In this document: positions 3,461 through 59,434 of the stretch, piece by piece | How the letters are laid out: every line of letters begins with the position of its first letter | How positions within the stretch are numbered: position 1 is the stretch's first letter | From: Anaerovoracaceae bacterium | GTDB lineage: Bacteria; Bacillota; Clostridia; Peptostreptococcales; Anaerovoracaceae | Assembly (NCBI GenBank): GCA_045643345.1 | Contig: JAZUKP010000033.1 | Location: 454 to 64,453 of the forward strand | Direction: 5' to 3' | DNA length: 64,000 nucleotides | Made by a program: the position numbers and the translations under genes | Notes under the pieces: model-generated | The model's input: the letters and a program-made list of their open reading frames with translations, nothing else | What the model was told of the DNA's origin: nothing | The model's database searches: none

Positions 3461-4741
3461 TCAATCTTTCAAACAGCCGATTGGTATTACTAATACTCCG
3501 TCTTCACGCTTGTATCCGTATTGTGTTCCGGTTATTACCAGTTTCAGATCAGGAGTCCGCAAAGGATTCTGTGATTCCTTTTTATTGTTTTCACGGATGA
3601 GTCGCTCCATTTCACACAAATGCTTTGCCCCTTCATCCACTTCTGATTGGCCCAACTTAAACTCAATCAGAGCGTATCTTCCATCGTTCAAATGCAAGAC
3701 AGCATCCGCTTCAAGACCAAGTCTGTCATGGTAGTATGAAATCGTGCCGTCATTACCAGATGAATAGATTTTTAAATCCCTGATACATAAACACTCAAAT
3801 AAGAACCCTAAGGTCTTATAATCCTTCGAAAAATATTCCGGTGACACGCCTAACGCGGCAGCCGCAATTGAAGGGTCGATGATGTTTCGTTTCTTTGATG
3901 ACCGGATGGATGTTTTTGACCGTATCGCGGGGCACCATGCGTCTATATCTTCCAGGATCATCAGCTTTTCAAAGCCAGAGACATAATCATAGTAGGTCTG
4001 TTTTGAAATGTCACAAGTTGCCGAAATATCCGCAAGTATTGTCTTAGCCTCTGCAAGCGTACAAAGATTCCGGGCATAAGACCTCAAAATCATCTTCGCC
4101 CATGTGGGATTTCTTTTCACTTTGTCAATGTTGGAAATATCAACCTCACAGGTCTGGGCAAACAGGTCCTTCGCGATGGATAGTTTTGCCTTATCTGTTT
4201 TTCCTCGCAGGCTTGCAGGCCAACCGCCCCGACATATCGCAAACTTAATGTTGTCAATCGTAAGATCGGATCTGCATCCTTCAAATGAGCCTGGATCGTC
4301 AAACAGCTGCGCCAGAGAAACAGTTCCGTTTGATTCCCCCGTTTCATACAAACTCATTGGATACATTTTAATCTTTGAAATTCTCAATGTTCCAGTATGC
4401 GGAGTTTCTACCGAAGCAGAACTGGATCCCGTCAGTATATACTGCCCGACTTCACCAGAATCATCTACATCCTTTCTGATTGCCCCCCATATTTTTGGGG
4501 CGTCTTGCCATTCATCGAACAGCCTTGGTTTTTCGCCTTTCAATAAATCAGACGGATGCGTGTTGGCAATAAGTAGATAGTTCTCCCGCTCATCTTCATC
4601 CTGAAATTCAATAAAACTTTTTGCTTTCATTTTTGCTGTTGTTGTTTTTCCGCAGCCCTTAGGTCCTATAATTAGCGCTGCACCAAATGCATCCAGTTTC
4701 TGTGAAAGCAGTTCGTCAGCAATTCTTTTTAGGTAGTTCAT
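3461..4741 (-). CDS. AAA-family ATPase (AAA_14/DUF4143-type)
   Basis: Walker A GPKGCGKT and the family-typical N-terminus MNYLKRIADELL. Start moved to ATG 4741 (GGAG 9 nt upstream). The -10 TATAAT (minus; 4771-4776) and -35 TTGCAA (4794-4799) lie inside repeat 1. Confidence 0.6.
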   Translation of the reverse strand: MNYLKRIADELLSQKLDAFGAALIIGPKGCGKTTTAKMKAKSFIEFQDEDERENYLLIANTHPSDLLKGEKPRLFDEWQDAPKIWGAIRKDVDDSGEVGQYILTGSSSASVETPHTGTLRISKIKMYPMSLYETGESNGTVSLAQLFDDPGSFEGCRSDLTIDNIKFAICRGGWPASLRGKTDKAKLSIAKDLFAQTCEVDISNIDKVKRNPTWAKMILRSYARNLCTLAEAKTILADISATCDISKQTYYDYVSGFEKLMILEDIDAWCPAIRSKTSIRSSKKRNIIDPSIAAAALGVSPEYFSKDYKTLGFLFECLCIRDLKIYSSGNDGTISYYHDRLGLEADAVLHLNDGRYALIEFKLGQSEVDEGAKHLCEMERLIRENNKKESQNPLRTPDLKLVITGTQYGYKREDGVLVIPIGCLKD

Positions 4742-4784
4742 CTTCTTTTTCTCCATGATTTTATGAGTATATTATATGCGCGAG

Positions 4785-4853
4785 TTGACAGATTTGCAAT
4801 AATCTGGTTGACAGATTTGCAATAACTTAATTGACAGATTTGCAAAAACGCAA
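4785..4853. repeat. three tandem 23-bp repeats TTGACAGATTTGCAAWAA
   Basis: Units start at 4785, 4808 and 4831. They overlap the -35 of the ATPase promoter and are a likely operator. Confidence 0.7.
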
Positions 4854-4909
4854 AACTATGGATTTTTTCTGCTAAGTGCGAAGAAAAACATGCAAAAGAG
4901 ATATTTTTA

Positions 4910-5046
4910 TTGATTTTTTTTAAATCATACAGTATACTGTACTTGTATCTTAATTTATGCTTTGCGAAGTATTATATCTTTGGCAAAGCCGCAAGTATTA
5001 TAATGATGTGATAATTTACGGATTCTATTGGAGAACCCGTTTTTTT
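4910..5046 (+). promoter_or_regulatory. structured leader copy A (promoter, covarying stem-loop, conserved box, terminator)
   Basis: Promoter TTGATT-17-TATACT (4910-4938). Stem-loop GCTTTGC-GAAG-tattatat-CTTT-g-GCAAAGC (4959-4989). Box GCAAGTATTATAATG. Hairpin ACGGATTCT-attg-GAGAACCCGT plus T6 (5018-5046), then GGAGGG and ATG 5071. Confidence 0.6.
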
Positions 5047-5070
5047 ATTGCAGAATTGAAGGAGGGAAAA

Positions 5071-5814
5071 ATGACATTGTTAAAAATCGTGGCACGCTTA
5101 GGTCTTTTCTTGTTGTTCTGGGTAGTATCTGGAATCACCTTTATGCAGTTCTTTGCATCTGATGGTGCAAAAAAAGCGTTTGCCTGGCTGAAGAAGTTCC
5201 GCAGCCGCATCGAAAATGCTGTGCGGGTATTTAAGGAGCCGGATAATACCAAGGTGCTGTTCGGCTATCCGTCGGTTGAGTCTTATTCGCGGGAAAGAAA
5301 TCAGAATCTGAATGCGATAAGACGCTGGGCGCAGGATGAAAGAAAAAATGGTCACACATTATCCTTTGAACTGAAGGAAGGAAGAACAAATCTGATGTTC
5401 TTAAAGTATGATGGGATTCGGTATGAAGCGGAAGTATTCTTTATTGAAGAGTACGGTACTTTATATGTAGATAAAATTTCTGCAAAACTGGCAAACGGCA
5501 GTTCGATTGAACTTGAAGGGAATTTACCCAAGAAGCCGAAGCTCGACATTAAGAAATTTTTCGAAAACGAAAATACCCAAAAATACTGTAGGGAAATCGC
5601 AGAAACCGTAAACGATTATGGAGAAGGAATGTTTTCCATATATAAATGTGCGGGCTGCGAAACCTATGCAGATATGGTGGCCCAGTACACTAAAGAAGAA
5701 ATTAAGGCCATGGAAGAAGAAGTATCCCACAGTTATAAGTCTTTCGAAGAATTAGCCGAAGGACTTTATCTGTGCAAAGGATACATTGAACAAGACGCCA
5801 TAACAGAAGAATAA
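5071..5814 (+). CDS. hypothetical membrane-anchored protein
   Basis: ATG 5071 follows GGAGGG. N-terminal TM helix LGLFLLFWVVSGITFMQFF. The 4957 start in the ORF track would translate the leader RNA. Confidence 0.55.
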   Translation: MTLLKIVARLGLFLLFWVVSGITFMQFFASDGAKKAFAWLKKFRSRIENAVRVFKEPDNTKVLFGYPSVESYSRERNQNLNAIRRWAQDERKNGHTLSFELKEGRTNLMFLKYDGIRYEAEVFFIEEYGTLYVDKISAKLANGSSIELEGNLPKKPKLDIKKFFENENTQKYCREIAETVNDYGEGMFSIYKCAGCETYADMVAQYTKEEIKAMEEEVSHSYKSFEELAEGLYLCKGYIEQDAITEE

Positions 5815-5831
5815 TTTGAGGAGGGAAAAAA

Positions 5832-6260
5832 ATGGCAACAAATCTTGTAGTTTTAACGGGTAGACTTACGGATAACCCGACCGTGCGTTACGGTGCACAA
5901 TCCCAGACAGCGGTAGCCCGCTTTAATCTTGCCGTAGACCGCGGCAAGAAAGACGGTAAAGATCTGGGAACGGATTTTCCGTCGATTGTCGCTTTTGGAA
6001 AAACTGCCGAAAACATCGAAAAATACTGCAAAAAAGGTTCCCTGGTACTCATCATGGGAAGACTTCAAACAGGTTCTTACGAAAAAGACGGCAGAAAGAT
6101 CTACACAACGGAAGTTTTGCTTGACCGTGTAGAGTTTCTGGAGAAGAAGAGTGATTCTGCTGCCGGCACACCGGCTCCTGCAGATGCAGCTCCGGCAAGC
6201 TCCGGTTCTGGGGATCCGCTTGGCGGAGTCAACCTTGACCCGGACGATATTCCGTTCTAA
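5832..6260 (+). CDS. ssb: single-stranded DNA-binding protein
   Basis: OB-fold SSB pattern (LTGRLTDNPTVRY, VAFGKTAENIEKYCKKGSLVLIMGRLQTGSYEKDG), a Gly/Pro/Ala-rich tail and an acidic tip DDIPF. Confidence 0.9.
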   Translation: MATNLVVLTGRLTDNPTVRYGAQSQTAVARFNLAVDRGKKDGKDLGTDFPSIVAFGKTAENIEKYCKKGSLVLIMGRLQTGSYEKDGRKIYTTEVLLDRVEFLEKKSDSAAGTPAPADAAPASSGSGDPLGGVNLDPDDIPF

Positions 6261-6277
6261 CAGCCATTTTAATGACA

Positions 6278-6317
6278 GGGGAAGATGCTTAAAAAGTATC
6301 TTCCCCGTAATTTTTTT
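6278..6317 (+). terminator. junction terminator 1 (hairpin, T7, fused to GAGGAGG)
   Basis: GGGGAAGAT-loop-ATCTTCCCC, then T7 running into GAGGAGG (6318-6324). Confidence 0.6.
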
Positions 6318-6335
6318 GAGGAGGATTTTAGAAAA

Positions 6336-6584
6336 ATGAATAGCAATTTAACACACTGCGTATCAACAAATTTAGGCGATGATTGTTCAAGTGAAATCAT
6401 CATTCACAGCGTCTGGACGCATATGATGCTGCCGAAAACCAACAGAGACCTTTTGCTGTTTTTAAACAACGGGGGCATTTCGATTGGCCGGTATGTAGGA
6501 GAAGATACCTGGATTGACAATAATGCCCTGGCAACAGAACATTACTTGTCCGATTCCGACGTGGGCCTGTGGATGTACTTGTAA
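6336..6584 (+). CDS. hypothetical protein
   Basis: 82 aa. ATG 6336 lies 11 nt after GAGGAGG. Confidence 0.5.
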   Translation: MNSNLTHCVSTNLGDDCSSEIIIHSVWTHMMLPKTNRDLLLFLNNGGISIGRYVGEDTWIDNNALATEHYLSDSDVGLWMYL

Positions 6585-6597
6585 GGAGGATATATGT

Positions 6598-7101
6598 ATG
6601 GATCTTCGGAAAAAATTCAAAGGTGTTCTGGAAGTTGCGTCTGGATATGTTACGGTTACAGACCCCGGATATGATGCTGATGAAGACTGCTTTATCCAGG
6701 TTACAGTAAAAAACGGCAGCTACCTCTGCTACACTTACGAAGCCGAAAAAACGGATTGGATTCAGAGAATGTGCCTGATGGATCAGGAAGATAACTTCTC
6801 CGAATCCGACTGGGAAATGATTGGATATCTTCCGGTAGATGCGGGCCTAATGTCTATCTGTGACGGACAAAAGCCGGATTACACCGATGCTGAATGGGAG
6901 ACATTCTGCGATATGCTTTCGGATAATATCTTTTACCATAAAGGCAAAAAAATGTTCGTTTCTCCGTCAGGGGAAGGGGACGGGTTCTATCCAGTGTATG
7001 CGGTTATGGACAAGGACAGAAATGCGATTGCAATAGAGATCCGCTTCCGTGACATGTGGATTAACCGTCAGGATGGGACCGTTCTCTACGATTTCTTTTA
7101 A
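6598..7101 (+). CDS. hypothetical protein (DUF4241-like, tentative)
   Basis: ATG 6598 lies 8 nt after AAGGAGGA. The C-terminal SPSGEGDGFYPVYAV motif resembles DUF4241-type proteins. Confidence 0.45.
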   Translation: MDLRKKFKGVLEVASGYVTVTDPGYDADEDCFIQVTVKNGSYLCYTYEAEKTDWIQRMCLMDQEDNFSESDWEMIGYLPVDAGLMSICDGQKPDYTDAEWETFCDMLSDNIFYHKGKKMFVSPSGEGDGFYPVYAVMDKDRNAIAIEIRFRDMWINRQDGTVLYDFF

Positions 7102-7141
7102 TTAAATTTTTTGGCTCCTTGTGGAGCTGTGCTTTTAGAAA

Positions 7142-7174
7142 GTTCAGCTCCTTTAGGGCTGAACAATTTTTTTT
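7142..7174 (+). terminator. junction terminator 2
   Basis: GTTCAGCtCC-ttta-GGgCTGAAC plus T8 running into GAGGAG. A second small hairpin GCTCC-ttgt-GGAGC lies at 7114-7127. Confidence 0.6.
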
Positions 7175-7186
7175 GAGGAGAAAAAA

Positions 7187-7942
7187 ATGGACGTAAACAA
7201 AATCAAAGAGTTGTATCCCGCCGGCACAAGAATCGTGCTGCTTTCCATGGGTGATGACCCTCGGCCGATTCCGCCGGGAACCAAAGGCACCGTAGACTAT
7301 GTGGATGATATCGGACAGCTGCATTGCAGCTTCGATAACGGAAGATACCTGGGGATTATCCCTGGGGAAGATGAATTCAAAAAGGTTTACTCTTCCGATG
7401 ATATCTCATTAAATCTTCGCGAGGACGGCAAACTTGAAATCTATCTTAAAAACTGCCTTGCAGCAGAAATTTCTGATGGAAAATATAGTCTGGAATTTGC
7501 TTTGGAAGTCTTGACCGGCATGGGTTATTATTTCGACGATGAGATAAAACCGTCTAATAAGATTACCGTATTGGTAATCGAACCCGGAAAAATCGCAAGA
7601 GTTGAAGAAGTAGAAACCGGGCTGAAAAGCTACCAAAAGCTCGTGGGCGGTGATATCGAAGGCTACTATCCCTTTGAGGAGGCGGTTTGCATTGTCTGTG
7701 ATGATTCCGGCAAATTCGATGGCAGCCTGCCAAACCGTGCAGTATATGACAGTGATGGGCGGATGCTGGATATCATCTTCGGAACATTCTTCATCTGCGA
7801 TTGCAGCGGGGAAGACTTTGGAAGTCTTTCTCCGTCTCAGATAGATAAATACAAAAAGATGTTTTTCTATCCGGAAAGATTTTTCGCCGCAGACGGGAAA
7901 GTTCAGGCAGTCAAAATTCAGACCAAGGAGGATTCGAAATGA
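7187..7942 (+). CDS. DUF4314/DUF3846-type conjugative-element protein
   Basis: The N-terminal YPAGTRIVLLSMGDDPRPIPPGTKGTVDYVDDIGQLHCSFDNG and C-terminal LVGGDIE...FGTFFICD modules are typical of Firmicutes ICE and plasmid leading regions. Confidence 0.55.
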   Translation: MDVNKIKELYPAGTRIVLLSMGDDPRPIPPGTKGTVDYVDDIGQLHCSFDNGRYLGIIPGEDEFKKVYSSDDISLNLREDGKLEIYLKNCLAAEISDGKYSLEFALEVLTGMGYYFDDEIKPSNKITVLVIEPGKIARVEEVETGLKSYQKLVGGDIEGYYPFEEAVCIVCDDSGKFDGSLPNRAVYDSDGRMLDIIFGTFFICDCSGEDFGSLSPSQIDKYKKMFFYPERFFAADGKVQAVKIQTKEDSK

Positions 7943-8106
7943 CAAAAGCCTTAAAAGAGAAAATCGAAGACATTGTGTTTGATTCATTGGCAGGGTATGT
8001 GTACGGCTATTACGGCGAGTCCGTGGAAGATGCCTGTTACGATTTGCACTCGCTTGCAAACTGCATCACAGAAGATCTGGCAAAGTTTCTTACAGAAGCG
8101 AAATAG
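7939..8106 (+). CDS. small hypothetical protein (55 aa, not in ORF track)
   Basis: ATGA start/stop overlap with 7187..7942. AAGGAGG lies 7 nt upstream. Translation: MTKALKEKIEDIVFDSLAGYVYGYYGESVEDACYDLHSLANCITEDLAKFLTEAK. Confidence 0.45.
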   Translation: MTKALKEKIEDIVFDSLAGYVYGYYGESVEDACYDLHSLANCITEDLAKFLTEAK

Positions 8107-8176
8107 CTTCTTACATTTCCTCCTTCGAAGGAAATAACAAAGCTTCATCGAAGCTGACATATATATCTATATATAA

Positions 8177-8210
8177 GATCAGCTTCGAAGGGGCTGGTCT
8201 TATTTTTTTT
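8177..8210 (+). terminator. junction terminator 3
   Basis: GATCAGCTT-cgaag-GGGCTGGTC pairs only with G-U wobbles on the + transcript. T8 runs into GAGGAG. Extra hairpins lie at 8115-8135 and 8141-8155. Confidence 0.55.
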
Positions 8211-8222
8211 GAGGAGAAAACT

Positions 8223-9050
8223 ATGAAAGAAGAAGCAAAAAGCCTTCTTACGATGAAGGGCACCCTGAAGAGTATTGCACGTGTATCGGATTACATCGAA
8301 GGGCTGATTGAAGCCGGCAATTCTGGGTTGGAAGAGAAGATCATCGAATCCAAGAAGACCATCAGCGATTGCTGGAAGTACATCACAAGCAAAGCAAAAG
8401 ACCAGGTAACAGATGGTTCTGCTTGCATTGAAGATGAAGAGGTCTACGGCTGGGCGGTGCATTACTTCGAAGAGCTGAGCCACCCGGACGGGTATGATGT
8501 GCCGAAGCCTGCAAAAAAGCCGGATGCAGCAAAAGCAGAAGATAAAACTGAGAAAAAAAGCCGCAAAAAGAAGGGCGAAGAGGTTAAGGCAGAAGAAAAA
8601 GCCGAAGAAAAACCTCCGATTATGGCTGAAGAAGTAAAGCCGGAAGCTGCTCCTGAAATGAAGGATGCAGCACCCGCGGAAACCGCAGAAGGTCTGCCGG
8701 ATGGCTTCATCAAGATTACCGAAGCCGAAGAAGATGTCTTCGCAGAGGAGGAATCTGAAGTTCTGGAAGGGCAGCTTGCTCTTTGCACTGATCAGCTTAT
8801 TCCCGAGCAGCCTGTTTCGGAGCCGGAAGCAAAAGAAGAAGAGGATCCTATCATTGACACCCCGGAAGAAGTGCTGGGCGAGAACCGCTGCTGCGCTGTA
8901 TGCGGGAAGAAGATGATGGATGCCTTCTCCGGGACCCCGGTAGAGACAATCCGCAAATGGACCGAAAGCTGGCTGCGTAATTACGGCGAAGTATTCTGCT
9001 GCAAAGACCATATGACGGAATTTCTTTCCAAGAAGGAGGCCGCTGTATGA
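8223..9050 (+). CDS. PcfK-like (AcrIIA9-family-like) protein with acidic linker and Cys-rich tail
   Basis: The N-terminal ~85 aa, ending DEEVYGWAVHYFEE, resemble PcfK-like proteins. An E/K/A/P low-complexity linker follows, then a C-terminal CCAVCGKK...FCCKDH. Confidence 0.45.
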   Translation: MKEEAKSLLTMKGTLKSIARVSDYIEGLIEAGNSGLEEKIIESKKTISDCWKYITSKAKDQVTDGSACIEDEEVYGWAVHYFEELSHPDGYDVPKPAKKPDAAKAEDKTEKKSRKKKGEEVKAEEKAEEKPPIMAEEVKPEAAPEMKDAAPAETAEGLPDGFIKITEAEEDVFAEEESEVLEGQLALCTDQLIPEQPVSEPEAKEEEDPIIDTPEEVLGENRCCAVCGKKMMDAFSGTPVETIRKWTESWLRNYGEVFCCKDHMTEFLSKKEAAV

Positions 9051-10378
9051 CGAAAGCAGAAAAAGAAAAGCTGGAAAAGGATACAGAGGAACTTGTTACT
9101 GCAAATCTTCCGATACCAAAGGAAATCAAAGCATTTTATAAAAAATGTGTTGAGCCTTCCATCGGCCGAGGATATGAATATGCGGAATACATTACCGAGA
9201 GGAAGGGAAGACTTCTTCAGAGGATATTCTGTTTTCAAGTTTTCGGGCTTGGCGGTAAAAAGCCGAGAGTCCGAGAAATTGCCCGCCGGTACGAAGGCGG
9301 AAAATTGGTCTGCTCCAATCTGATTGGCGGATATATGAGTAATCCATATCTTCCGGATACGGCGCACAGCGAGGAGATGCATGAGTCCGGCTGGGATCCA
9401 AAGTATGCGGGAGTCGTCCAAGGAAACACGAAGGCCAACTTCACGAATCCATATATTTGCGTCAACGAAAAAAGCATGATGAAGAAATATCCGTACTGTG
9501 CGTATGACCAGTACCGCGGATACCTGTGTATGTTCAAGTACTTGTGTGCATACAGGAAATACCCGTTAATTGAACTTCTGGTAAAAGCAGGATATGCCAA
9601 TTTTGTGCCGTTTGCCGGGTGGCTCGATATGAACGGAAAGACCGTCAGACAGATCTTCAAGGTAAAGCAGGATTTTGCAGCGGAATATCTGAAACACGGA
9701 AGCTCATACGATCTTTCGATTCTCCGGAAAAATGAGTGGATCGACAGCGCTGACAAGCTCGTCTCTTATGAGAAAGTCTTACATGATGATTTAAGGAGCA
9801 ACTTTTCAGATGAAGAACTCCGCTATGTGGCATGCCAGAGAAGTGATCTCCAGACATATAAGGACTATTTGAGAATTGCAGATTTACTTGCCTACCCTCT
9901 GCATGAGAAACGGTACAAATACCCGAAGAATCTGAAGGAAGCGCATGACGAAGCCAGCAAGACCTATAAGGTCATTCTCGATGCAAAAAACGATGCAGCG
10001 ATTAAGGCAGTTTCCGAACAATGCGGGAAACTTGCATTTGCAAAAAACGGATACTGCATATTCCCGCTTTCGTGCAGCCAGGATCTTATTGACGAATCCG
10101 CTGCTTTAAATCACTGCGTAAGAAGCTATGTAGACCGCGTGGTAAAAGGGGAGTCGCTTATTCTTTTCGTCCGTAAAGAATCGGATCCTGGAAAGCCTTT
10201 CGTTACGCTTGAACTGGTAAAGCCCAAGAACGTTGATACATCACTTCCGCTGGAAAAGCAGTTTACGAAGATATCCCAGGTACATGGATTGCGGAATGCT
10301 GCGCCGGATGCTGATACGGCAAAGTTCATCATGTCGTGGAAAAAAGAAAACCACCTGACCGGCTGGAAGGCCGCGTAA
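9047..10378 (+). CDS. PcfJ-like protein
   Basis: ATGA overlap with the upstream gene. The C-terminal AALNHCVRSYVDRVVKGESLILFVRK...PFVTLEL resembles the PcfJ-like family. The pcfK-pcfJ adjacency is known from pCF10. Confidence 0.45.
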   Translation: MTKAEKEKLEKDTEELVTANLPIPKEIKAFYKKCVEPSIGRGYEYAEYITERKGRLLQRIFCFQVFGLGGKKPRVREIARRYEGGKLVCSNLIGGYMSNPYLPDTAHSEEMHESGWDPKYAGVVQGNTKANFTNPYICVNEKSMMKKYPYCAYDQYRGYLCMFKYLCAYRKYPLIELLVKAGYANFVPFAGWLDMNGKTVRQIFKVKQDFAAEYLKHGSSYDLSILRKNEWIDSADKLVSYEKVLHDDLRSNFSDEELRYVACQRSDLQTYKDYLRIADLLAYPLHEKRYKYPKNLKEAHDEASKTYKVILDAKNDAAIKAVSEQCGKLAFAKNGYCIFPLSCSQDLIDESAALNHCVRSYVDRVVKGESLILFVRKESDPGKPFVTLELVKPKNVDTSLPLEKQFTKISQVHGLRNAAPDADTAKFIMSWKKENHLTGWKAA

Positions 10379-10430
10379 ATCCGCTCTGAAGGATTTGTAA
10401 TGCTCCCTCCGGGGGCTGAAGCTATCATAG

Positions 10431-10462
10431 CTGCAGCCTTCAGAGGGGCTGCAGAGTTTTTT
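10431..10462 (+). terminator. junction terminator 4
   Basis: CTGCAGCC-ttcagag-GGCTGCAG plus T6 into GAGGAG. The 24-nt hairpin is identical to 14172-14195. Confidence 0.65.
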
Positions 10463-10475
10463 GAGGAGAAGAATA

Positions 10476-10760
10476 ATGTTTACCGAAACAGATAAAAAGC
10501 TTCTATTTGAAATGGGAAAATCCAGCAGAGATATTCTTCAGATAGAACGTGCCTTCAATAAGACCAATTTCACTCTATTCTGGGAAAGATCGGGGAAAAA
10601 CTACTCAATCAGCGCAGCAAAAGCAAGTGAAATTCTCGGAAGAGCAGTATTCCTTTCTGGGCTTGCAAGAAGTACATTCCATTGGAGCGCAGTTCGTCTG
10701 GTTCCAGAGCAGGAAGGGAAGATGGTATATTTCGACAGTTCTGAGTTCTTCAGAAGTTAG
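10476..10760 (+). CDS. hypothetical protein
   Basis: 94 aa. ATG 10476 lies 7 nt after GAGGAG. Confidence 0.5.
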   Translation: MFTETDKKLLFEMGKSSRDILQIERAFNKTNFTLFWERSGKNYSISAAKASEILGRAVFLSGLARSTFHWSAVRLVPEQEGKMVYFDSSEFFRS

Positions 10761-10797
10761 TTTTACATAGCTCTAAAAGGAGCTGCAGCTTATATTT

Positions 10798-10833
10798 AGG
10801 CTCGGCTCCTTTGGGACCGGGCCTTCTTTTTTT
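10798..10833 (+). terminator. junction terminator 5
   Basis: AGGCTCGGCTCC-tttg-GGACCGGGCCT plus T-run into GAGGAGG. The upstream hairpin AGCTC-taaaag-GAGCT lies at 10769-10784. Confidence 0.65.
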
Positions 10834-10846
10834 GAGGAGGAATCAC

Positions 10847-11362
10847 ATGATAAAACATTCTATCTGGAGTAACGATGTATCTGAGATAGATGCAATCGCA
10901 CGAGGATTGATGCAGGAAGAGCCGGAGCTGTCCGAGAGGGAAGCCTGGGATCTTGCAGAAGATTACAACAGCGAGTATTTGCTGGATGAGCGCTACAATC
11001 TGAATATCTTGCTTCCAACAGACATCATCATAATTGCGGATCTGGGGCTGTGGAACGGGCGTGTCAAGGCATATAAGGAGCTTAACAGCTGCAACATCAA
11101 AAGCTGTCTTTACGCAAGTTCTGATGGAGAATATATGTCTTGGTACGTTGACGGCAATGCCGGCCGCGGGGACCTTCGGTGCGACGAAACACATCATGAC
11201 GGCACCAATCACTATCTGTATCGCAGATGGAAAGAAGGGATTTCCGAGGCAGCCAAAGAAAGTTTCTTGGAAAAAATCTACAACTCCACGGCAACCCCGA
11301 AAGATGTATCCCGGTATACAAAAAGCCTTGCACCTGAAATTGCAAAAGCCTACGGCTGGTAG
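10847..11362 (+). CDS. hypothetical protein
   Basis: 171 aa. ATG 10847 lies 6 nt after GAGGAGG. No motif recognised. Confidence 0.5.
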   Translation: MIKHSIWSNDVSEIDAIARGLMQEEPELSEREAWDLAEDYNSEYLLDERYNLNILLPTDIIIIADLGLWNGRVKAYKELNSCNIKSCLYASSDGEYMSWYVDGNAGRGDLRCDETHHDGTNHYLYRRWKEGISEAAKESFLEKIYNSTATPKDVSRYTKSLAPEIAKAYGW

Positions 11363-11421
11363 ATAGTCCGCTGAAAACGGACAGAAAAGCTCAGATAGAG
11401 CTGAATCATATTATTATTTTG

Positions 11422-11452
11422 GTTCGGCTCTTCGGAGCCGGACTGTTTTTTT
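11422..11452 (+). terminator. junction terminator 6
   Basis: GTTCGGCTC-ttcg-GAGCCGGAC plus T7 into GAGGAGG. Upstream hairpins lie at 11366-11382 and 11388-11402. Confidence 0.7.
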
Positions 11453-11467
11453 GAGGAGGATTATTTA

Positions 11468-11878
11468 ATGAGAGAAAACTTAAAGACGTTGCCCATATGT
11501 ACGTGGTTCGACGAAGAAATCGAAGTCTGCTTTGAGATTGGGGCCTACTTTTATGGCAACCGGCTGGCAGTCAATGCGCTGTGTCTGGAAGAAGGGGAAT
11601 ATGTTCCTTTTGCCGATCTTACCGTGAACCTTCCGGAAGAAGAATTATCCGGTCCCTGTTGTGCCTATCTTGACATCAACAATTTTTTCCGGGGGACATT
11701 GCTTGTGATGCAGGCTGGAATAGCGCAGCCAACCGGAAAGTATGGAAGATCCGGCTACTGCACTTATCCGGAATACGAATTTGACTTGGAAAAGCTGAAG
11801 GAGTACATCTATAATCTGGAAGAATTCGACGAAGTTAAGCGCGCGATTTTCGGAGAAGGAGGACGTGAAGATGCCTAA
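11468..11878 (+). CDS. hypothetical protein (DUF4313-like, tentative)
   Basis: 136 aa. It resembles small conjugative-element proteins (GRSGYCTYPEYEFD). The family call is low confidence. Confidence 0.4.
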   Translation: MRENLKTLPICTWFDEEIEVCFEIGAYFYGNRLAVNALCLEEGEYVPFADLTVNLPEEELSGPCCAYLDINNFFRGTLLVMQAGIAQPTGKYGRSGYCTYPEYEFDLEKLKEYIYNLEEFDEVKRAIFGEGGREDA

Positions 11879-12581
11879 TTACTGCACGTACGACCTCCGG
11901 GCAGAAGGGAAAAAGAAAGACCTTCTTACTCTTACGGATTGGCTTGCTGCGGATTATCACTATAACGAAGATCCGCCGGTTATAGTAAAAAAAGAAACCG
12001 GAATCGTTCCTACCGAGCATCACATCGGATACCGCGTATTCGACTTTTACCCGCTGGAATACGGAGAAAACTTCGAAAATGCGAGGCCGAATGAAGTAGT
12101 TAAAATGAGCGGTTACGGGGATGTAGCCTGGTCTGTTGAAACAACGATGTTCGACGGGCCGCACACCTATACCGAGGACGCGAAAGACTTGCCGAACAGG
12201 AAGAGTATTACCCTCCCGGACGCGTGCAGGATGCTGCATGTGCGAGCTGAAATTTACTCATTGGAAGAAGGCGTTGGTTTTGTGGAGCATTATCTTGTCT
12301 CCGAAGATGGAGAAGTTGTAGTCTCTGACTGCTTCGATTGTGCTGCCTTCTGGATTCCGGAGCAAAACACGCTTCAGGAAGTCGCCGAAGAGCATGATTT
12401 AGTACTGAAAGATGATAAGCTGTATTCTGCAGGAAGCGAAAAAAAACTGATCATTACAAAAGAGCAGTTTGAAGCGGTAAAAGACGCCGGCGAAGATATC
12501 TTCTATGTATGCGATATCGCAGATCCGGAATATCCTTGCTATATTCAGCAGGACTGGAGCATTGAGATACAATCTATCTAA
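11871..12581 (+). CDS. DUF1281/Api92-like ferredoxin-like domain protein
   Basis: Start moved to ATG 11871 (AGGAGGA 7 nt upstream). This gives the N-terminus MPNYCTYDLRAEG, which is typical of the family. 8-nt overlap with the upstream stop. Confidence 0.45.
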   Translation: MPNYCTYDLRAEGKKKDLLTLTDWLAADYHYNEDPPVIVKKETGIVPTEHHIGYRVFDFYPLEYGENFENARPNEVVKMSGYGDVAWSVETTMFDGPHTYTEDAKDLPNRKSITLPDACRMLHVRAEIYSLEEGVGFVEHYLVSEDGEVVVSDCFDCAAFWIPEQNTLQEVAEEHDLVLKDDKLYSAGSEKKLIITKEQFEAVKDAGEDIFYVCDIADPEYPCYIQQDWSIEIQSI

Positions 12582-12613
12582 AACGCAGGATATGCTGCGA
12601 TTCACAATTTTGA

Positions 12614-12645
12614 GTCTGCGGCATATCCCCGCAGACCTTGTTTTC
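12614..12645 (+). terminator. intrinsic terminator
   Basis: GTCTGCGG-catatc-CCGCAGAC followed by CTTGTTTTC. Confidence 0.6.
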
Positions 12646-12699
12646 TATCTATGATGTCTGAGTGAGTTTAGATATAATAGAGGATGAAAGGACGAAGAA

Positions 12700-14121
12700 A
12701 TGTTTTTCAAGAAATTAAAAAAACAAGTTCCCGATATCCCGGAAGATACACCTGCCATCACAAAAGAACAGGTACATCCGGAGCAAAGCACTTGCGACTT
12801 TATTATCCGGGCTTATGGCGGTCGGGCAAGCGCCCTGATCAGTGCTATGCCGCTTCATCCCTTAACCGGCGAAAATGCTTCGGGGGTATATCATCCAAGA
12901 TACAACAGAACTTATTATAATGATAAGATGATGCAGTTATTTAATCGTTTCGGTATAGACGAACAGCCCGGTTATTGCATCGGTTCGCTTAAAAAGAGCT
13001 TTGTTGGTTCTGAAAAGGATAGGAGCTGCAACAACAATTTTTCTATCGAAAAAGCATGTGATACGTATAATTGCATAGCCGAAATATTCGGATTTAATGC
13101 AGCAAGCGGGATCATAGAGCATCTTATTGTAGATGATACAGGGACAATTATTTTCTATAACCATCATGAAAATAAAAAGCCGTGGAATGAGTACCGCGAG
13201 GAGCTTCCCTGGATTATCAGTGATAAGATGGAAGAGTGTTTGCGCATCATTCATAATCTCCAAGAGATTGCAAAGAATCCCTCTGATGTTTACATCGACA
13301 GGGATTTTCTTTGGACGAAGGATGATACCATTTGCGGCCGGTACAGCATTGCCGAATTGAATGATCCTGATTATGACGGAATCCATGTCGTATCAAGTAT
13401 GCCGACGATGTACCGGGCCAAGATTGATTCCTTTGGACAATACATTGCTACCCCGAACACAACATGGGTCGAAGAGAATGATAAAAACAATATCCAAAGA
13501 TTTTGGGGAGCGGGAACTTATCTTTTTACGCTTTATGATACTTTTCTCGAAGAGCCGGCACGTCGTAGCTGCAATAACAACTATTCAATCTGCGACGAGT
13601 GCAAAAAAGAGGGTTCAACAATCGAACTTAACGGTCATAATCGTGAACTTCATTTCGAAGAACATATTATCATAAATAAGTTCGGAAAGCTGATTCTTTA
13701 CGAGAAGCATTCGCATAAAGAAGGTGAAGATACTGAGCATTATACGCCACTGATTTTGACGAAGGAATACACCCGGTTTTCAAAAGATTCAACAAGGCCG
13801 ATTCTTGTATGTCAAAAAACAAACAAGGAATATATAGTCACAAGTGATATATTTACCATCGGCTTCAATGAAAAAAATGATTTACGCATTGAGCAACCGA
13901 AAGAGGATCACTATGTCAGTAATTTCCATGCGACGCTGATTGTAATGCCGAATGGAAAGATAACCATATCTGACTATTCGCGCAACGGCACATTTATTTC
14001 AGGTAAAGGCTCCGAAGATGATTGCTTTGTTCGCATTCCGCCTAATATGGCTATCAAGATTGAAAACGGAATGTATGTAAAGTTTGCAAACGAAGTGTTC
14101 CAATTCTTTGAAAATTCTTAG
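12700..14121 (+). CDS. FHA-domain protein with internally duplicated N-terminal region
   Basis: The C-terminal FHA pattern is FTIGFNEKNDLRI...VSNFHATL...ISDYSRNGTFISG. Two N-terminal repeats are (D/R)RSCNNN(F/Y)SI, each followed by a beta-rich IIxxxG.IIFY/LILYEKH segment. Confidence 0.7.
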   Translation: MFFKKLKKQVPDIPEDTPAITKEQVHPEQSTCDFIIRAYGGRASALISAMPLHPLTGENASGVYHPRYNRTYYNDKMMQLFNRFGIDEQPGYCIGSLKKSFVGSEKDRSCNNNFSIEKACDTYNCIAEIFGFNAASGIIEHLIVDDTGTIIFYNHHENKKPWNEYREELPWIISDKMEECLRIIHNLQEIAKNPSDVYIDRDFLWTKDDTICGRYSIAELNDPDYDGIHVVSSMPTMYRAKIDSFGQYIATPNTTWVEENDKNNIQRFWGAGTYLFTLYDTFLEEPARRSCNNNYSICDECKKEGSTIELNGHNRELHFEEHIIINKFGKLILYEKHSHKEGEDTEHYTPLILTKEYTRFSKDSTRPILVCQKTNKEYIVTSDIFTIGFNEKNDLRIEQPKEDHYVSNFHATLIVMPNGKITISDYSRNGTFISGKGSEDDCFVRIPPNMAIKIENGMYVKFANEVFQFFENS

Positions 14122-14171
14122 TCTCTCTGAAAGACTAACAAAGCCCTCTTGGGCTGCAATAATTTTATTAA

Positions 14172-14205
14172 CTGCAGCCTTCAGAGGGGCTGCAGTTGTT
14201 TTTTT
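14172..14205 (+). terminator. junction terminator 7
   Basis: CTGCAGCC-ttcagag-GGCTGCAG (identical to 10431-10454) plus T-run into GAGGAG (14206-14211). Confidence 0.65.
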
Positions 14206-25303: not shown

Positions 25304-25405
25304 ATGAGCGATTTTGAGATTCTCAGCATCGTATTTGCTGTTTTAGGAATCGTTGTATCCATGCTGATTGCATGGATTAAAGAAATTAGTTCAAGAAAAA
25401 AATAA
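25304..25405 (+). CDS. holin-like type I toxin peptide, copy 1 (33 aa, not in ORF track)
   Basis: MSDFEILSIVFAVLGIVVSMLIAWIKEISSRKK has a single TM helix with a basic tail (Hol-Tox-like pattern). GGGGGTGA SD. Own promoter TTGACC-17-GAAAAT (25188-25216). Confidence 0.6.
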   Translation: MSDFEILSIVFAVLGIVVSMLIAWIKEISSRKK

Positions 25406-25482
25406 CCGCCGGACCTGACAAAACGGCGATTATTTTTATTCGCTTTTTTTAGGGCAAACCGTCTATCGGTAGCTCTTTTTCT
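25393..25482 (-). ncRNA. candidate antitoxin antisense RNA, copy 1
   Basis: Minus-strand promoter TTGACA-17-TATCAT (plus coordinates 25517-25489). The shared bidirectional terminator CGCCG-loop-CGGCG (25407-25428) has U-runs both ways, so the transcript overlaps the toxin 3' end. Confidence 0.45.
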
Positions 25483-40777: not shown

Positions 40778-41583
40778 TGGAAAAGACAATAGTTGCGGAA
40801 CTGGATATAACCGGCAGAGTTTTAGGACTTTACGAAAAAGACAAAAACGATAAAATCACGCCATCAAAGCTAAAAAAAATCTCGAACCATTCGGATCTGT
40901 TTGAAGCGTTAGCCCAGCGTCTTGAAATGGCAGAAGCTTTTTATAGCCCGGACGGGCCTGCCTACAATATGGCGCGAAGAATACTGGATGCGTTTGTTTT
41001 ATTCGCATATCCTACTTCTGTTGCCAATCATCTGCAGCAATATGGATATAAAAATACCGAAACCATCCATTCTCAGATGGTTAAAAGCGGCTCCGAAATG
41101 AAGGTAATCACCCCAGATGAAGATATCCCCCTTCCGAAAAACCTTCCCCCGGATGATTTGCTTTATTACGTTTTTAAAAATAATGGTATTCAGCAAAAAG
41201 CGGAAAAGTACCTGGAAAACATGAAAGTCAAAGAGAATATGCCGCTTTATTATGCTGTATCAGCTTATATCGTGGATTTTTTCATTTCGCTTGCGGAAAA
41301 CGAAAAAACAAAGAAATATGCCTTCATCCTGTTTTATCACTATATGGATCCGAGTAATTCCCATAAACCTATTACCCAGAAGGCGGAAGAATATGCGAAG
41401 TTATACGGCATTGCAGAAGCCACCTATTATCGCCACATTAAGACAGCAACTATTCTTTTCGCAAAGTCAATCTGGGGAGAACTCCCAGCACCGGAAAACA
41501 ATTCTTCTCTTGAAATTGTCAATAACAGAATTGTTTTCAAAAAACCGAAAAAGTTTGACGCGGGCGAAGGACATAAGGTATAA
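40777..41583 (+). CDS. hypothetical protein with C-terminal sigma region-4-like HTH
   Basis: The C-terminal ITQKAEEYAKLYGIAEATYYRHIKTATILFAKSIWG resembles a sigma-70 region 4 / phage late-regulator HTH. This is weak. Confidence 0.4.
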   Translation: MEKTIVAELDITGRVLGLYEKDKNDKITPSKLKKISNHSDLFEALAQRLEMAEAFYSPDGPAYNMARRILDAFVLFAYPTSVANHLQQYGYKNTETIHSQMVKSGSEMKVITPDEDIPLPKNLPPDDLLYYVFKNNGIQQKAEKYLENMKVKENMPLYYAVSAYIVDFFISLAENEKTKKYAFILFYHYMDPSNSHKPITQKAEEYAKLYGIAEATYYRHIKTATILFAKSIWGELPAPENNSSLEIVNNRIVFKKPKKFDAGEGHKV

Positions 41584-41695
41584 TACCCTTGTAGTTTTAT
41601 TAAAACTCACACGAAGCATTGCGTCTTTAAGTGAGTATGTAGCATTATAGTGAGTATGTTAATTTACGGTTTTTCATTTTGAGAAGCCGTTTTTA
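41555..41695 (+). promoter_or_regulatory. structured leader copy C
   Basis: Promoter TTGACG-18-TATAAT (41555-41584). Stem-loop CTCAC-ac-GAAG-cattgcgt-CTTT-aa-GTGAG (41606-41635). Box GTAGCATTATAGTG. Hairpin CGGTTTTTC-atttt-GAGAAGCCG plus T5 (41666-41695). Confidence 0.6.
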
Positions 41696-41719
41696 ATTTG
41701 TAAATGAAAGGAGGAAAAA

Positions 41720-42034
41720 ATGCTTGCTATAAATGAACTGAGTTTCAGCGGAATCGTCTCAGATAAATCCGTAAATGAGAAAGGCACCTATTTTACGCTT
41801 TCGCAAAGAGTTTACGGCAAAATTGATACGGCTCTTGAAGTATTCGCTCCGCTTATTGCTTTCCCGGAAGGCCTTCCGATAGAAAACGGTGATACCGTCT
41901 ATATCAGCAGCGCCCTTCTGTATCAAAACGGTAATGGTTATCTTGCCCGGATTGCACACAAGGAACAGCTTCAGATCGTTGAAAAAAATTTTGACCTGGG
42001 AGAAATCTCCGCAGACAAAGAATTCAAATTATAA
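41720..42034 (+). CDS. hypothetical small protein
   Basis: 104 aa. AAAGGAGG SD. First gene behind leader C. A possible OB-like beta-rich fold is only a guess. Confidence 0.45.
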   Translation: MLAINELSFSGIVSDKSVNEKGTYFTLSQRVYGKIDTALEVFAPLIAFPEGLPIENGDTVYISSALLYQNGNGYLARIAHKEQLQIVEKNFDLGEISADKEFKL

Positions 42035-46203: not shown

Positions 46204-46280
46204 AAGAATTGAAAGAAAAAAGTATTAAAGGAGGGACCATTTATGGCCCCTCCTTTGCCTTCACGCAAAAAATCCAACAT

Positions 46281-46376
46281 TTACAAGCAAAAAAAAGAAT
46301 GTTAAAATAATTATACCTTTTTAGTTTAACGCCCTTAGAAGCATTACGCCTTTGACGGGCAGCCAGTATTATAGTA
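46281..46376 (+). promoter_or_regulatory. structured leader copy E (truncated, no ORF)
   Basis: Promoter TTACAA-16-TAAAAT (46281-46308). Stem-loop GCCC-tta-GAAG-cattacgc-CTTT-gac-GGGC (46331-46360). Box GCCAGTATTATAGT. It lacks the usual terminator and SD. Confidence 0.5.
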
Positions 46377-46449
46377 CCTTTCGTTTTTTTATGGTGTTTT
46401 TTCACCGGCGAATTTCGCGAGAGACTATGACAATTTAAGTGATGGAAAG

Positions 46450-46480
46450 AGAGGGGTTTTCCCCTCTTTTTCTTTTTTTC
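46450..46480 (+). terminator. intrinsic terminator
   Basis: AGAGGGG-tttt-CCCCTCT followed by a long T-rich run. Confidence 0.75.
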
Positions 46481-46481
46481 T

Positions 46482-46618
46482 TTGACAAACCCAAATTTTC
46501 AGATATAATGAGAATGTAATTTAATTTGTAGCTTGCCGAAGCATTACGACTTCAACGAGCCGCCAGTATTATATTAAAGTGTTAATTTGCGATTTTTTAA
46601 ATAAAATCGCTTTTTTTG
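46482..46618 (+). promoter_or_regulatory. structured leader copy D
   Basis: Promoter TTGACA-16-TATAAT (46482-46509). Stem-loop GCTTG-cc-GAAG-cattacga-CTTC-aa-CGAGC (46531-46560). Box GCCAGTATTATATT. Hairpin GCGATTTT-ttaaat-AAAATCGC plus T7 (46589-46617). Confidence 0.6.
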
Positions 46619-46643
46619 TGTCTTAATTTAAGGAGGAAAATGA

Positions 46644-46886
46644 ATGATTGAACACTACGACACGCAAAGAGGCTACCTACTTCGGCTGCCTCCCGGAATC
46701 ACATCCGGAAACTATCTTGGATTTACCCTGAAAAAAGGCTTTTTTTACGGCCGCGATCAGGACGGAATCCCCATAGCTTACACAGGGTCCTTGACTGAGC
46801 CACACTTTATCTACAAGCTGCAGGCCGGGAAGTGGACGCCTTGTGATATAAGCCATGAAGCTTTGACCGCATTGATTGTAGGTTGA
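46644..46886 (+). CDS. hypothetical small protein
   Basis: 80 aa. AAGGAGG SD. First gene behind leader D. Confidence 0.45.
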   Translation: MIEHYDTQRGYLLRLPPGITSGNYLGFTLKKGFFYGRDQDGIPIAYTGSLTEPHFIYKLQAGKWTPCDISHEALTALIVG

Positions 46887-46918: not shown

Positions 46919-46949
46919 ATAGGCAATAATAGATGATGCCTATTTTTTT
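46919..46949 (+). terminator. intrinsic terminator
   Basis: ATAGGCA-loop-TGCCTAT plus T7. Confidence 0.6.
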
Positions 46950-58375: not shown

Positions 58376-58514
58376 TTGCCATGAAGAAAAATGAATGATA
58401 TACTTGTGACATAATATGTTTATAGCTTCGAGAAGTATTGTATCTTCGGTGAAGCAGCAAGAATTATAATGATGTGCTAATTTACGGTTTTCAATTTGAG
58501 GGAACCGTTTTTTT
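58376..58514 (+). promoter_or_regulatory. structured leader copy B
   Basis: Promoter TTGCCA-17-TATACT (58376-58404). Stem-loop GCTTC-ga-GAAG-tattgtat-CTTC-ggt-GAAGC (58425-58455). Box GCAAGAATTATAATG. Hairpin ACGGTTTTC-aattt-GAGGGAACCGT plus T7 (58483-58514). Confidence 0.6.
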
Positions 58515-58543
58515 GTGTCCAAATTTAAGGAGGAAAAAAGAAA

Positions 58544-59434
58544 ATGAAAAGCGAAAAAATGAACCTGAAGGACTGCATTAAGCCTAAAATGGAAGACGGT
58601 AACGTGATCTTTGTGCAGGCAACCAACGAAAAAGGAGAACCCATCTATGGGAAGAATACCGATGGGAACCTGGTTGCTGTTCTGGTCCCGGATTACTATG
58701 TGGATGCCAATTCCCTGCGCGGCTTGTTCTGGTCGGAATATCCGCAAGGCAGAGAGGAAGCTATCAGAACCACATTAGATCCGGTGTACGATGCAGATAA
58801 GAAGACTTGGATCTGTGCGCCCGAAACGATTGAAGTCCGTCTGTATGCGAATGCAGCGGACACCAAACCCATTGCAAATGGCTTTGGAAAAAGCGTACCG
58901 ACAGAAGCCAACAAGTATCCGGAGCTGCCGTCTGCGATTTCTCTTGCTTTCAGCAATGCCATGAAAAACTTAGGTTACATTGGGGAAGACGAAATCAAAG
59001 AAATGCAAAGTGAATCTGCTTTGCATTATGAATTAAAGGCAGGGGAGAGACCATCTGCAATCGTTCCGATTGATCTGGCAGCACTTTTTGAAGAAGATGC
59101 CGCGAAAGATTCCGCTGTCTCCGAAGTAAAAGCGGAAGATAAGGAAATGACATTAGCCGGTTCTTCTATCTTTGCAGCCATGAGTGCAGCCGCAGCCATT
59201 GATGAAGCTCCGCAAACATTTGTTGCAGCAGAAATTACTGCTGAAAGTGCAGAGGATGTAGTATTCGCTACTACAAAAGAAACTTGGAGCAAGTATAACG
59301 GCAAGACATTCCGGGAAAATAAGGAAGATTCCCTGTTCTCCCAGCTTATCACGGCGATTGCCCGTAATCCGCAGCGGTACGAAAAGTTTATGTCTGCGGA
59401 TTCATTAAAGGCCGCAGCCATTCTTGCGAGATAA
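58544..59434 (+). CDS. hypothetical protein (possible Rad52/Sak-like annealing protein, weak)
   Basis: 296 aa. LPSAISLAFSNAMKNLGYIG is reminiscent of the conserved helix of phage Rad52-like SSAPs. The call is speculative. Confidence 0.35.
   Translation: MKSEKMNLKDCIKPKMEDGNVIFVQATNEKGEPIYGKNTDGNLVAVLVPDYYVDANSLRGLFWSEYPQGREEAIRTTLDPVYDADKKTWICAPETIEVRLYANAADTKPIANGFGKSVPTEANKYPELPSAISLAFSNAMKNLGYIGEDEIKEMQSESALHYELKAGERPSAIVPIDLAALFEEDAAKDSAVSEVKAEDKEMTLAGSSIFAAMSAAAAIDEAPQTFVAAEITAESAEDVVFATTKETWSKYNGKTFRENKEDSLFSQLITAIARNPQRYEKFMSADSLKAAAILAR

Follow-up and report, generated by a model that had tools for sequence, protein, structure and literature searches.

A structured 5' leader in five copies on a divergent conjugative plasmid of Bacillota type

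In the LoaP system of Bacillus velezensis, the dfn and mln leaders contain a small hairpin and a NusA-dependent terminator, and further terminators lie within the two operons (PMC12691694). Cis-acting antiterminator RNAs have also been described in conjugative elements, namely conAn2 (PMC8191782) and canT (PMC11658703). The present analysis concerns a leader element that occurs in five copies (A to E) in a 64,000-nucleotide stretch of an Anaerovoracaceae bacterium contig (JAZUKP010000033.1, positions 454 to 64,453; hereafter the window). The window is part of a Bacillota-type conjugative plasmid whose relatives are all very distant. The element is best explained as a transcribed 5' leader: a cis-regulatory RNA that extends for about 100 nt from start site to T-run, heads four operons and has a truncated fifth copy. 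It is a real, well-defined and undescribed structured family, so far from one divergent plasmid, although its kind, a leader-terminator control element, is known. LoaP with the dfn hairpin is its closest precedent.

The initial annotation of the window had described five + strand loci with a common architecture, and all five were recovered by reading the sequences, by a pattern scan and by a covariance model. The scan searched the whole window on both strands for the composite pattern GAAGYATTNNNNCTT-N(8-18)-AGNATTATA, with 100 shuffles as a control. Five matches were found (4966, 41613, 46338, 46538, and 58432), all on the + strand, with none on the - strand and none in the 100 shuffles. The covariance model (R1) comprised the 5' tail, the stem-loop SL1 and the region of a conserved linear box, and was run on the whole window with filters off. 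The five copies scored 57.6-66.9 bits and the next match scored 17.8 bits; the window therefore contains exactly five copies and no degenerate extras. A perfect apical motif at 19346-19361 was ruled a chance match, as it lies inside an open reading frame (ORF) and is without the outer stem.

Sigma-A-type promoters were found ahead of SL1 on the + strand in each copy: TTGATT-17-TATACT in copy A (4910..4938; scanner score 9/12), TTGCCA-17-TATACT with a TG extension in copy B (58376..58404; 10/12), TTGACG-18-TATAAT in copy C (41555..41584; 11/12), TTGACA-16-TATAAT in copy D (46482..46509; 12/12), and TTTACA-17-TAAAAT with a TG extension in copy E (46280..46308; 10/12). The remaining features of the copies lie on the same strand at near-fixed spacing: 20-22 nt from the -10 hexamer to SL1 (20 nt in copy A), 4-5 nt from SL1 to the box, 6-7 nt from the box to TAATTT, and 12-13 nt from the T-run to AAGGAGG. 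A purine stands 7 nt past the -10 hexamer in each copy, and the RNA would start about 7 nt after the -10, giving an AU-rich 5' tail of 14-16 nt. Downstream, the ribosome-binding site (RBS) and start codon belong to a 247-aa membrane protein in copy A (AAGGAGG and ATG, 5059..5073), a 296-aa orphan in copy B (58527..58546), a 104-aa orphan in copy C (41708..41722) and an 80-aa orphan in copy D (46630..46646). The earlier proposal of a structured, multi-copy + strand element placed between promoter and RBS is borne out.

SL1 consists of an outer stem, 4-7 bp long and different in each copy, followed by a small internal loop, then an inner stem that is invariant, and an AUURY pentaloop. Within the inner stem, G-A-A-G-Y is paired with R-(bulged N)-C-U-U-Y, leaving a 1-nt bulge. 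In copy A (4959..4989; -10.8 kcal/mol) the outer stem is GCTTTGC/GCAAAGC, the inner stem GAAGU/A-(U)-CUUU and the pentaloop AUUAU. The other outer stems are GCTTC/GAAGC in copy B (58425..58455), CTCAC/GTGAG in copy C (41606..41635), GCTTG/CGAGC in copy D (46531..46560), and GCCC/GGGC in copy E (46331..46360); all had been quoted correctly and all are complementary. The pentaloop variants were AUUAU, AUUGU, AUUGC, and AUUAC.

Covariation of the outer stem, also claimed at the outset, was upheld, with double changes at 5/5 pairs and 100% of cells paired among five paralogues in a hand-registered alignment. A sixth covarying pair, between loop positions 1 and 7 (U-A in A and B; C-G in C, D, and E), closes the AUURY pentaloop, and all cells of both SL1 helices were paired. 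The covariation score was 0.58-0.60 vs. 0.27-0.30 in shuffles (0/500 reached the observed value), and 0.08-0.17 when the 3' partners were slid. MAFFT/RNAalifold of the raw copies misregistered the stems; the alignment was re-registered by hand and gaps were replaced with N. It contains five sequences hand-fitted to the structure, and such fitting leans the counts towards the structure. Three blocks were fixed among the copies (the SL1 tip, the box and UG-N-UAAUUURCG), and the flanks diverged freely. Because flanks and outer stems drifted while these blocks stayed fixed, the copies read as old paralogues, selected for shape at one place and for sequence at three others.

The conservation of the whole promoter-to-RBS geometry, including the spacer between T-run and RBS (family D9), would also be expected of a constitutive leader with no switch, in which SL1 is a 5' stabiliser or processing signal, the weak terminator is a fixed leak valve holding strong promoters to low output, and the five copies are one expression cassette reused. 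The order promoter-terminator-RBS was additionally found without SL1 upstream of VirB4, both here and in a relative (L127), which is in line with such a cassette. A stabiliser, however, needs only a stem, yet it is the loop, the inner stem and the unpaired box that are invariant while the stem sequence drifts. An invariant loop, inner stem and box beside a drifting stem indicate sequence-specific recognition, and a constitutive leader is improbable.

The box has the invariant core AG-N-ATTATA-N-T, which was found six times in the window vs. 0.37 expected. Nothing beyond this core is invariant, and the 15-nt consensus first given for the box was too strict. The individual boxes are AGTATTATAATG in copy A (4994..5005), AGAATTATAATG in copy B (58460..58471), AGCATTATAGTG in copy C (41641..41652), AGTATTATATTA in copy D (46565..46576), and AGTATTATAGTA in copy E (46365..46376). 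When the RNA was begun at the predicted start site, pairing of the box with the 5' tail was no better than with shuffled tails, so the box is probably presented single-stranded in the folding models. A helix between 5' tail and box that appears in some minimum free energy folds was rejected, as it equals shuffled tails from the predicted start. A 4-bp pseudoknot between loop and box is possible, without covariation support (95% of cells paired, zero double changes). Each leader contains AG-Y/W-AUUR both in the loop and in the box, at a distance of about 27 nt; AAGYATTRY was found 15 times in the window vs. six expected.

The box resembles a -10 hexamer whichever strand is read: the + (non-template) strand gives TATANT and, in 5/5 copies, the - strand gives a perfect TATAAT. 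The + strand TATANT is possibly a sigma-dependent pause signal, judging from its sequence. As a second + strand promoter the box was rejected, since its spacing to any TTG-type hexamer (about 13 nt) is too short. On the - strand, ATTATA is the reverse complement of TATAAT, and under counter-transcript control as in pT181, pIP501 and pAMbeta1 this -10 would drive a short antisense RNA reaching over SL1 that kisses the conserved loop and induces termination. The antisense strand of each copy is indeed the best partner in the window for all leaders. Against this, no consistent -35 hexamer or TG extension was found on the - strand; no - strand terminator follows SL1 in copies A, B, D, or E, a T-run being found in copy C only; and the classical systems need an alternative target fold, which was not found by folding. 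Counter-transcript control is thus very improbable. No trans RNA complementary to the leaders was found in the window.

In copies A to D, TAATTTRCG forms the 5' foot of a predicted terminator hairpin that is followed by T5-T7. Copies A, B, and C share TAATTTACG here: in copy A with a weak terminator hairpin and T7 (5012..5046; -6.4 kcal/mol), in copy B with a terminator that has two G-U pairs and T7 (58478..58514; -9.3 kcal/mol), and in copy C with a terminator and T5 (41660..41694; -11.9 kcal/mol on the + strand). Copy D has TAATTTGCG with the terminator GCGATTTT/AAAATCGC and T7 (46583..46617; -7.5 kcal/mol). Double changes were found in 3/9 pairs of the terminator helix and 94% of cells were paired. 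In copy E (46280-46392), a promoter of its own, SL1 and the box are present and a residual T-run remains (CGTTTTTTTAT, 46382..46392), while the terminator hairpin is lost; about 50 nt further on, a strong terminator lies between E and D (46444..46479; -20.2 kcal/mol) and abuts the -35 hexamer of D.

Terminator folding was biased to the + strand in two copies (B, -9.3 vs. -5.4 kcal/mol on the complement; C, -11.9 vs. -3.8 kcal/mol), and the strand bias was not clear for the terminators of A or D, nor for SL1. The suggestion that the terminator needs G-U pairs on the + transcript stands for B and C and falls for A and D. SL1 is about equally stable on either strand, a property that would suit a role at the DNA level, either as a Frpo-like single-stranded DNA promoter or post-transfer priming site, or as a pair of half-sites (GAAGYATT and AGWATTAT) at which a repressor would bind double-stranded DNA. 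The genes behind copy A form a set of leading-region type (SSB, DUF4314/DUF3846, PcfK, PcfJ, and RadC), and single-stranded DNA promoters are known from leading regions (PMC11541004, PMC8708921). At 30-31 nt, however, SL1 could not accommodate both a -35 and a -10, and no hairpin includes the sigma-A promoter. Good folding of the B and C terminators is confined to the + strand, compensatory stem changes would not be selected by a double-stranded operator, and every copy is placed precisely between promoter and RBS. A DNA-level role is the least probable of the explanations weighed here.

When leaders were folded truncated before the 3' arm of the terminator, no conserved helix sequestering the 5' arm was found. 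There being no competing antiterminator helix, a classical riboswitch, T-box or counter-transcript toggle is not evident. Control by RNA refolding is also unlikely on the folding models, because no conserved helix sequesters the terminator 5' arm and the box is probably unpaired. A ligand-controlled attenuator, offered as an option in the initial annotation, was not sustained, since folding gave no antiterminator helix and the structured part is a single 30-nt hairpin. Overall, folding argues against a ligand-sensing or T-box attenuator and favours a factor or RNA acting on polymerase, or a protein on the terminator 5' arm.

The operon behind copy A contains seven strong intrinsic terminators (6278..14205, +; stems at 6278, 7142, 8173, 10431, 11420, 12614, and 14169), so that its description as a terminator-punctuated operon proved accurate. 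These internal terminators have energies of -12 to -19.4 kcal/mol vs. -6.4 to -11.9 kcal/mol for the leader terminators, and each internal T-run leads straight into GAGGAG and a start codon (families D8, D14, and D15). Promoter-like sites in the cassette region numbered 29 vs. 31 in shuffles. As there is no room for promoters and promoter-like sites are not enriched, the downstream cassettes would be expressed by read-through only. Operons C and D each have a terminator after their first small gene, a terminator-like hairpin after the 104-aa gene in operon C (42079-42100, +) and a terminator after the 80-aa gene in operon D (46919..46949, +), and copy E stands ahead of a terminator of -20 kcal/mol; both points speak for read-through. 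Several of the operon A terminators have the core CAGCCTTCAGAGGGGCTG in common.

The account tentatively preferred here, as a plausible one that falls short of being probable, is that the leader is a recognition module for terminator read-through, N/nut-, put-, or LoaP-like, in which a factor or the polymerase engages the nascent RNA. Sigma-A RNA polymerase would initiate about 7 nt past the -10 hexamer and transcribe the AU-rich tail (14-16 nt) and then SL1, whose shape would be kept by compensatory change and whose tip (GAAGY/R-CUUY and AUURY) would be fixed in sequence. The single-stranded box AG-N-AUUAUA-N-U, -10-like (TATANT) on the non-template DNA, would be transcribed next, and last the weak intrinsic terminator with its conserved 5' flank UAAUUURCG. 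SL1 tip and box would together be recognised, as a two-part site, by a sequence-specific factor or by polymerase itself. Upon engagement, the elongation complex would resist the leader terminator and the further terminators of the operon (processive antitermination); otherwise most transcripts would stop at the leader terminator. We infer the start sites, termination at the hairpins, the promotion of read-through, its processivity and the existence of the factor.

In a narrower and rather unlikely form, SL1 and box would need no partner and act as a put-like antiterminator RNA, or would combine a loading hairpin with a -10-like sigma-dependent pause site. Copy E would then serve as a booster or decoy and a hairpin at 46976-46999 as a reloading site. 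Whichever form applies, this SL1-like hairpin (CCCGUAUAA-GUAUUG-UUAUGCGGG, +, -11.8 kcal/mol), with the AAGUAUUGU motif in its loop, may represent a sixth site of recognition. Neither a box nor a terminator accompanies it; its place after the internal terminator of operon D, upstream of a 405-aa gene (47025), also speaks for read-through.

Several points weigh against the read-through account. Every covariation signal comes down to five paralogues from one plasmid in a hand-registered alignment, and transcription starts and termination are predictions. No homologue of the leader was seen beyond the plasmid among the PLSDB, phage, IMG/VR, GTDB, and JGI collections. No NusG/KOW, N-like, Q-like or known RNA-binding domain was found among the scanned window ORFs; the Pfam scan took in 60 window ORFs, and about 20 kb of the 84.6-kb contig lie outside the window. 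Operon B, with two genes, has no strong internal terminator and so does not call for processivity. Control of the opposite sign, by a factor that promotes termination, would be served by the same anatomy, and the conserved UAAUUURCG at the terminator foot fits a locally acting protein equally well.

Such a protein is at the centre of a simpler, non-processive attenuator, in which a plasmid RNA-binding protein or small RNA on the SL1 tip, the box and UAAUUURCG stabilises or blocks the weak terminator and thereby adjusts each operon locally. One version would provide negative feedback, with a burst of expression on entry into a new host and shut-off as the factor accumulates, and copy E would give a decoy RNA of about 160 nt, ending at 46444-46479, that titrates the factor. 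One of the three conserved blocks is the 5' foot of the terminator, the two occurrences of AG-Y/W-AUUR about 27 nt apart suit a dimeric binder, and weak leader terminators are tunable. Transient, repressor-limited establishment regulons are known in the pLS20 family (PMC8708921), as is the binding of leader RNA by PrgU on pCF10 (PMC8265641). The attenuator leaves expression behind the seven strong terminators of operon A unexplained, however, and neither a candidate binder nor a complementary trans RNA was identified in the window. It is the main rival, a possible reading, though a doubtful one.

Searches for described families and homologues returned little. Against Rfam 15, no match reached gathering thresholds, and nothing overlapped any copy at E<=5 in the whole window. 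Focused Rfam scans gave L20_leader only, at 15.5-21.5 bits vs. a threshold of 58.7; this similarity was dismissed, as the alignment covers just the terminator and AU-rich linker. The statement that the motif belongs to no described RNA family agrees with these scans, which included EAR, STAXI, radC, JUMPstart and ribosomal-protein leaders. Megablast of 4000-12000 against PLSDB and phage records was empty, as was tblastn of the first genes after copies B and A against PLSDB, and distant blastn of leader B against PLSDB gave noise only. Exact-pattern scans yielded 24 matches in IMG/VR, 57 in GTDB genomes and 41 in JGI metagenomes, all by chance and without stem or terminator. Among five loci of VirB4 relatives (L082, L083, and L125-L127), the best R1 match (E=0.18) was an ordinary promoter.

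Proteins of the plasmid reach just 25-28% identity to any PLSDB entry, and the nearest VirB4 is 44% identical. Genes in the window include a type IA topoisomerase (38522), a Rep3 initiator (52336; iterons at 51870-52287), two ParA proteins (55566 and 57218), and VirB4 (60748). Operon A encodes the 247-aa membrane protein, SSB (5832), DUF4241, DUF4314/DUF3846, PcfK, PcfJ, DUF4313, an FHA protein and RadC, a typical leading-region or establishment gene set. Operon B contains two genes, for the 296-aa orphan and for a protein of 352 aa whose primase-like match is weak. Operon C begins with the 104-aa orphan, followed by a MoxR-like AAA_5 protein and a VWA protein, and operon D encodes the 80-aa orphan, the 405-aa protein (47025), a YqaJ-like nuclease and a RecD2-like helicase. 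The label of DNA-metabolism operons that had been given to these gene sets thus suits some of them, and does not suit A (an establishment set) or C (MoxR-like AAA and VWA).

The first genes of leaders C and D (41720-42034 and 46644-46886) encode small beta-rich proteins of 104 and 80 aa, which are candidate trans-acting factors; the initial annotation had proposed both, along with the ORF at 40777. Neither had a match in Pfam, NCBIfam or, by sequence search, the PDB, and the 104-aa protein had zero sequence homologues in a collection of 5.8 billion proteins. The 104-aa protein and the 296-aa protein of copy B were singletons in protein searches. AlphaFold models of the 104-aa and 80-aa proteins had pLDDT values of 51 and 54, too low for a fold search; the 104-aa model suggests, at low confidence, an OB-like beta-beta-alpha-beta-beta-beta order.

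Upstream of the Rep3 gene, the iteron array (51870-52287) comprises six iterons of 22-25 bp, (G)TTTCCGTACTAAATGTAGCATTT, and is likely the replication origin. Between the two parA-type genes, dense AT-rich repeats with a period of 10-14 bp, (A)TATATA(A)AAGA, were found at 56775-57161 and may be a partition site or DNA-unwinding region. A non-coding unit of about 300 nt occurs in tandem duplicate (25206-25531 and 25722-26040; 91% and 79% identity over two segments), where about 1.2 kb are free of long ORFs. An IS605-family OrfB/TnpB-like gene (OrfB_IS605 and a Cas12f1-like TNB domain; 30685-31827, +) lies within a block of - strand genes. Three perfect 15-bp direct repeats of TTGACAGATTTGCAA with 23 bp spacing (4785-4845, +) precede the copy A promoter by 65-125 bp. 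They overlap a promoter-like TTGCAA-17-TATAAT on the - strand that belongs to the divergently oriented gene of a DUF4143 ATPase (3461-4756), and are probably a DNA operator or a set of iterons.

Directly before VirB4, a perfect TTGACA-17-TATAAT, a short leader and a terminator-like hairpin were found (60662-60745), and the same promoter-terminator-VirB4 layout was found in the 44%-identical relative (L127: 455-560). This plasmid group appears to use the order promoter, terminator, RBS habitually. Another relative (L082; VirB4 42% identical) has upstream of VirB4 a 61-nt element with a GGCACGCGTGCC hairpin, duplicated 225 nt apart (1887-1947 and 2112-2172). This repeated leader element is not homologous to the SL1 leader. 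L082 additionally encodes a Sigma70_r2 sigma factor beside its T4SS genes (13247-13897); the present window yielded none.

The rep, par, and virB4 promoters in the window are without the SL1 leader and carry the palindrome TTGAAATTTCAA instead. Together with near copies, the palindrome GTTGAAATTTCAAC was found seven times in the window vs. 0.7 expected, upstream of virB4, rep and parA; sites lie at 60506-60519, 60621-60634, 51974-51987, 55466-55479, 25074-25087, and 25670-25683. The closest relative has a similar CGTTGAGTTTTCAACAG ahead of its VirB4 (L127: 424-440). On this evidence the palindromes look like a separate DNA-level regulon.

Global control on plasmids usually relies on repressor-bound DNA operators, such as those of KorA/KorB, omega and Reg. 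The present plasmid appears to have a DNA-operator circuit of this type too, in the palindromes at rep, par and virB4, and a second regulon, seemingly on nascent RNA, that unites the leading-region-type genes with three further operons. What is unusual is that a plasmid should have such a regulon, spanning several operons, at the RNA level. If the leader is an antitermination signal, it would account for the expression of a cassette array punctuated by strong terminators and would add a compact recognition module of about 60 nt to the few known Gram-positive antitermination systems. Were the put-like or pause-site form correct, the leader would represent a new class of processive antitermination signal, and one polymerase-directed RNA regulon would cover most of the establishment and DNA-processing genes of the plasmid; no RNA regulon of several operons would have been described on a conjugative plasmid before it. 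The leader is short and modular, and natural stem-swap variants are present.

The initial annotation had likened the leader to nut-, put-, EAR-, and ConAn-type layouts. The arrangement of hairpin, box and terminator is as described there; membership of these families, or of LoaP, was not supported, the tested defining features of each being absent. Like lambda N/nut and rrn leaders, the plasmid leader has a bipartite signal of a hairpin with a conserved pentaloop and a linear box, after the promoter and before terminators. Its order of hairpin then box is that of rrn and the opposite of nut. In nut, boxA (CGCUCUUA type) lies 5' of boxB, the loop is GNRA-like and the factor is the arginine-rich N, whereas the plasmid box is unrelated and its loop is AUURY; no N-like protein was recognised among the scanned window ORFs. 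HK022 put, EAR and Tn916 canT are likewise structured RNAs that follow promoters and act on the transcribing polymerase, and put is present in two copies. HK022 put has two adjacent stem-loops, unlike the single conserved stem-loop between start and terminator here; EAR is about 120 nt with a pseudoknot and was not detected here by Rfam; and canT is single-copy.

Among conjugative elements, ConAn (pLS20-type; PMC8191782) also provides processive read-through of terminators in a Gram-positive conjugative-element operon. ConAn2 is, however, 260-600 nt, single-copy and located after conAn1, while the plasmid leader is about 100 nt, in five copies and 5' of the first gene. EGeRS1 and EGeRS2 of the pLS20 family (PMC8708921) share with it the repetition of one regulatory sequence before several establishment operons. 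EGeRS1 is set apart by its description (400-600 bp, many inverted repeats and no strong sigma-A promoter), and EGeRS2 sites are DNA operators for an RHH repressor, in contrast to a short transcribed leader with a terminator. The order of promoter, leader stem-loop with a conserved loop, terminator and RBS is that of pT181, pIP501 and pAMbeta1. Those leaders control rep, whereas the plasmid leader heads establishment and DNA-processing operons; its - strand TATAAT is a weak candidate for an antisense promoter, no consistent antisense terminator was seen, and no alternative fold was found. Frpo differs in that a long hairpin rebuilds -35 and -10; here the promoter lies outside SL1, and the helix between the 5' region and the box equals shuffles.

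LoaP acts through a NusG paralogue, and no NusG_N/KOW match was found in the 60 window ORFs scanned against Pfam. Its hairpin has a UNCG tetraloop, while the plasmid leader has an AUURY pentaloop with a bulge, an extra linear box and five copies on the plasmid. Folding energies are -6.4 to -11.9 kcal/mol for the leader hairpins and -12 to -20 kcal/mol for the internal terminators. The plasmid leader appears to have in common with LoaP a hairpin with a sequence-specific loop before a weak predicted terminator, operon-internal terminators, reuse of the hairpin and no competing fold.

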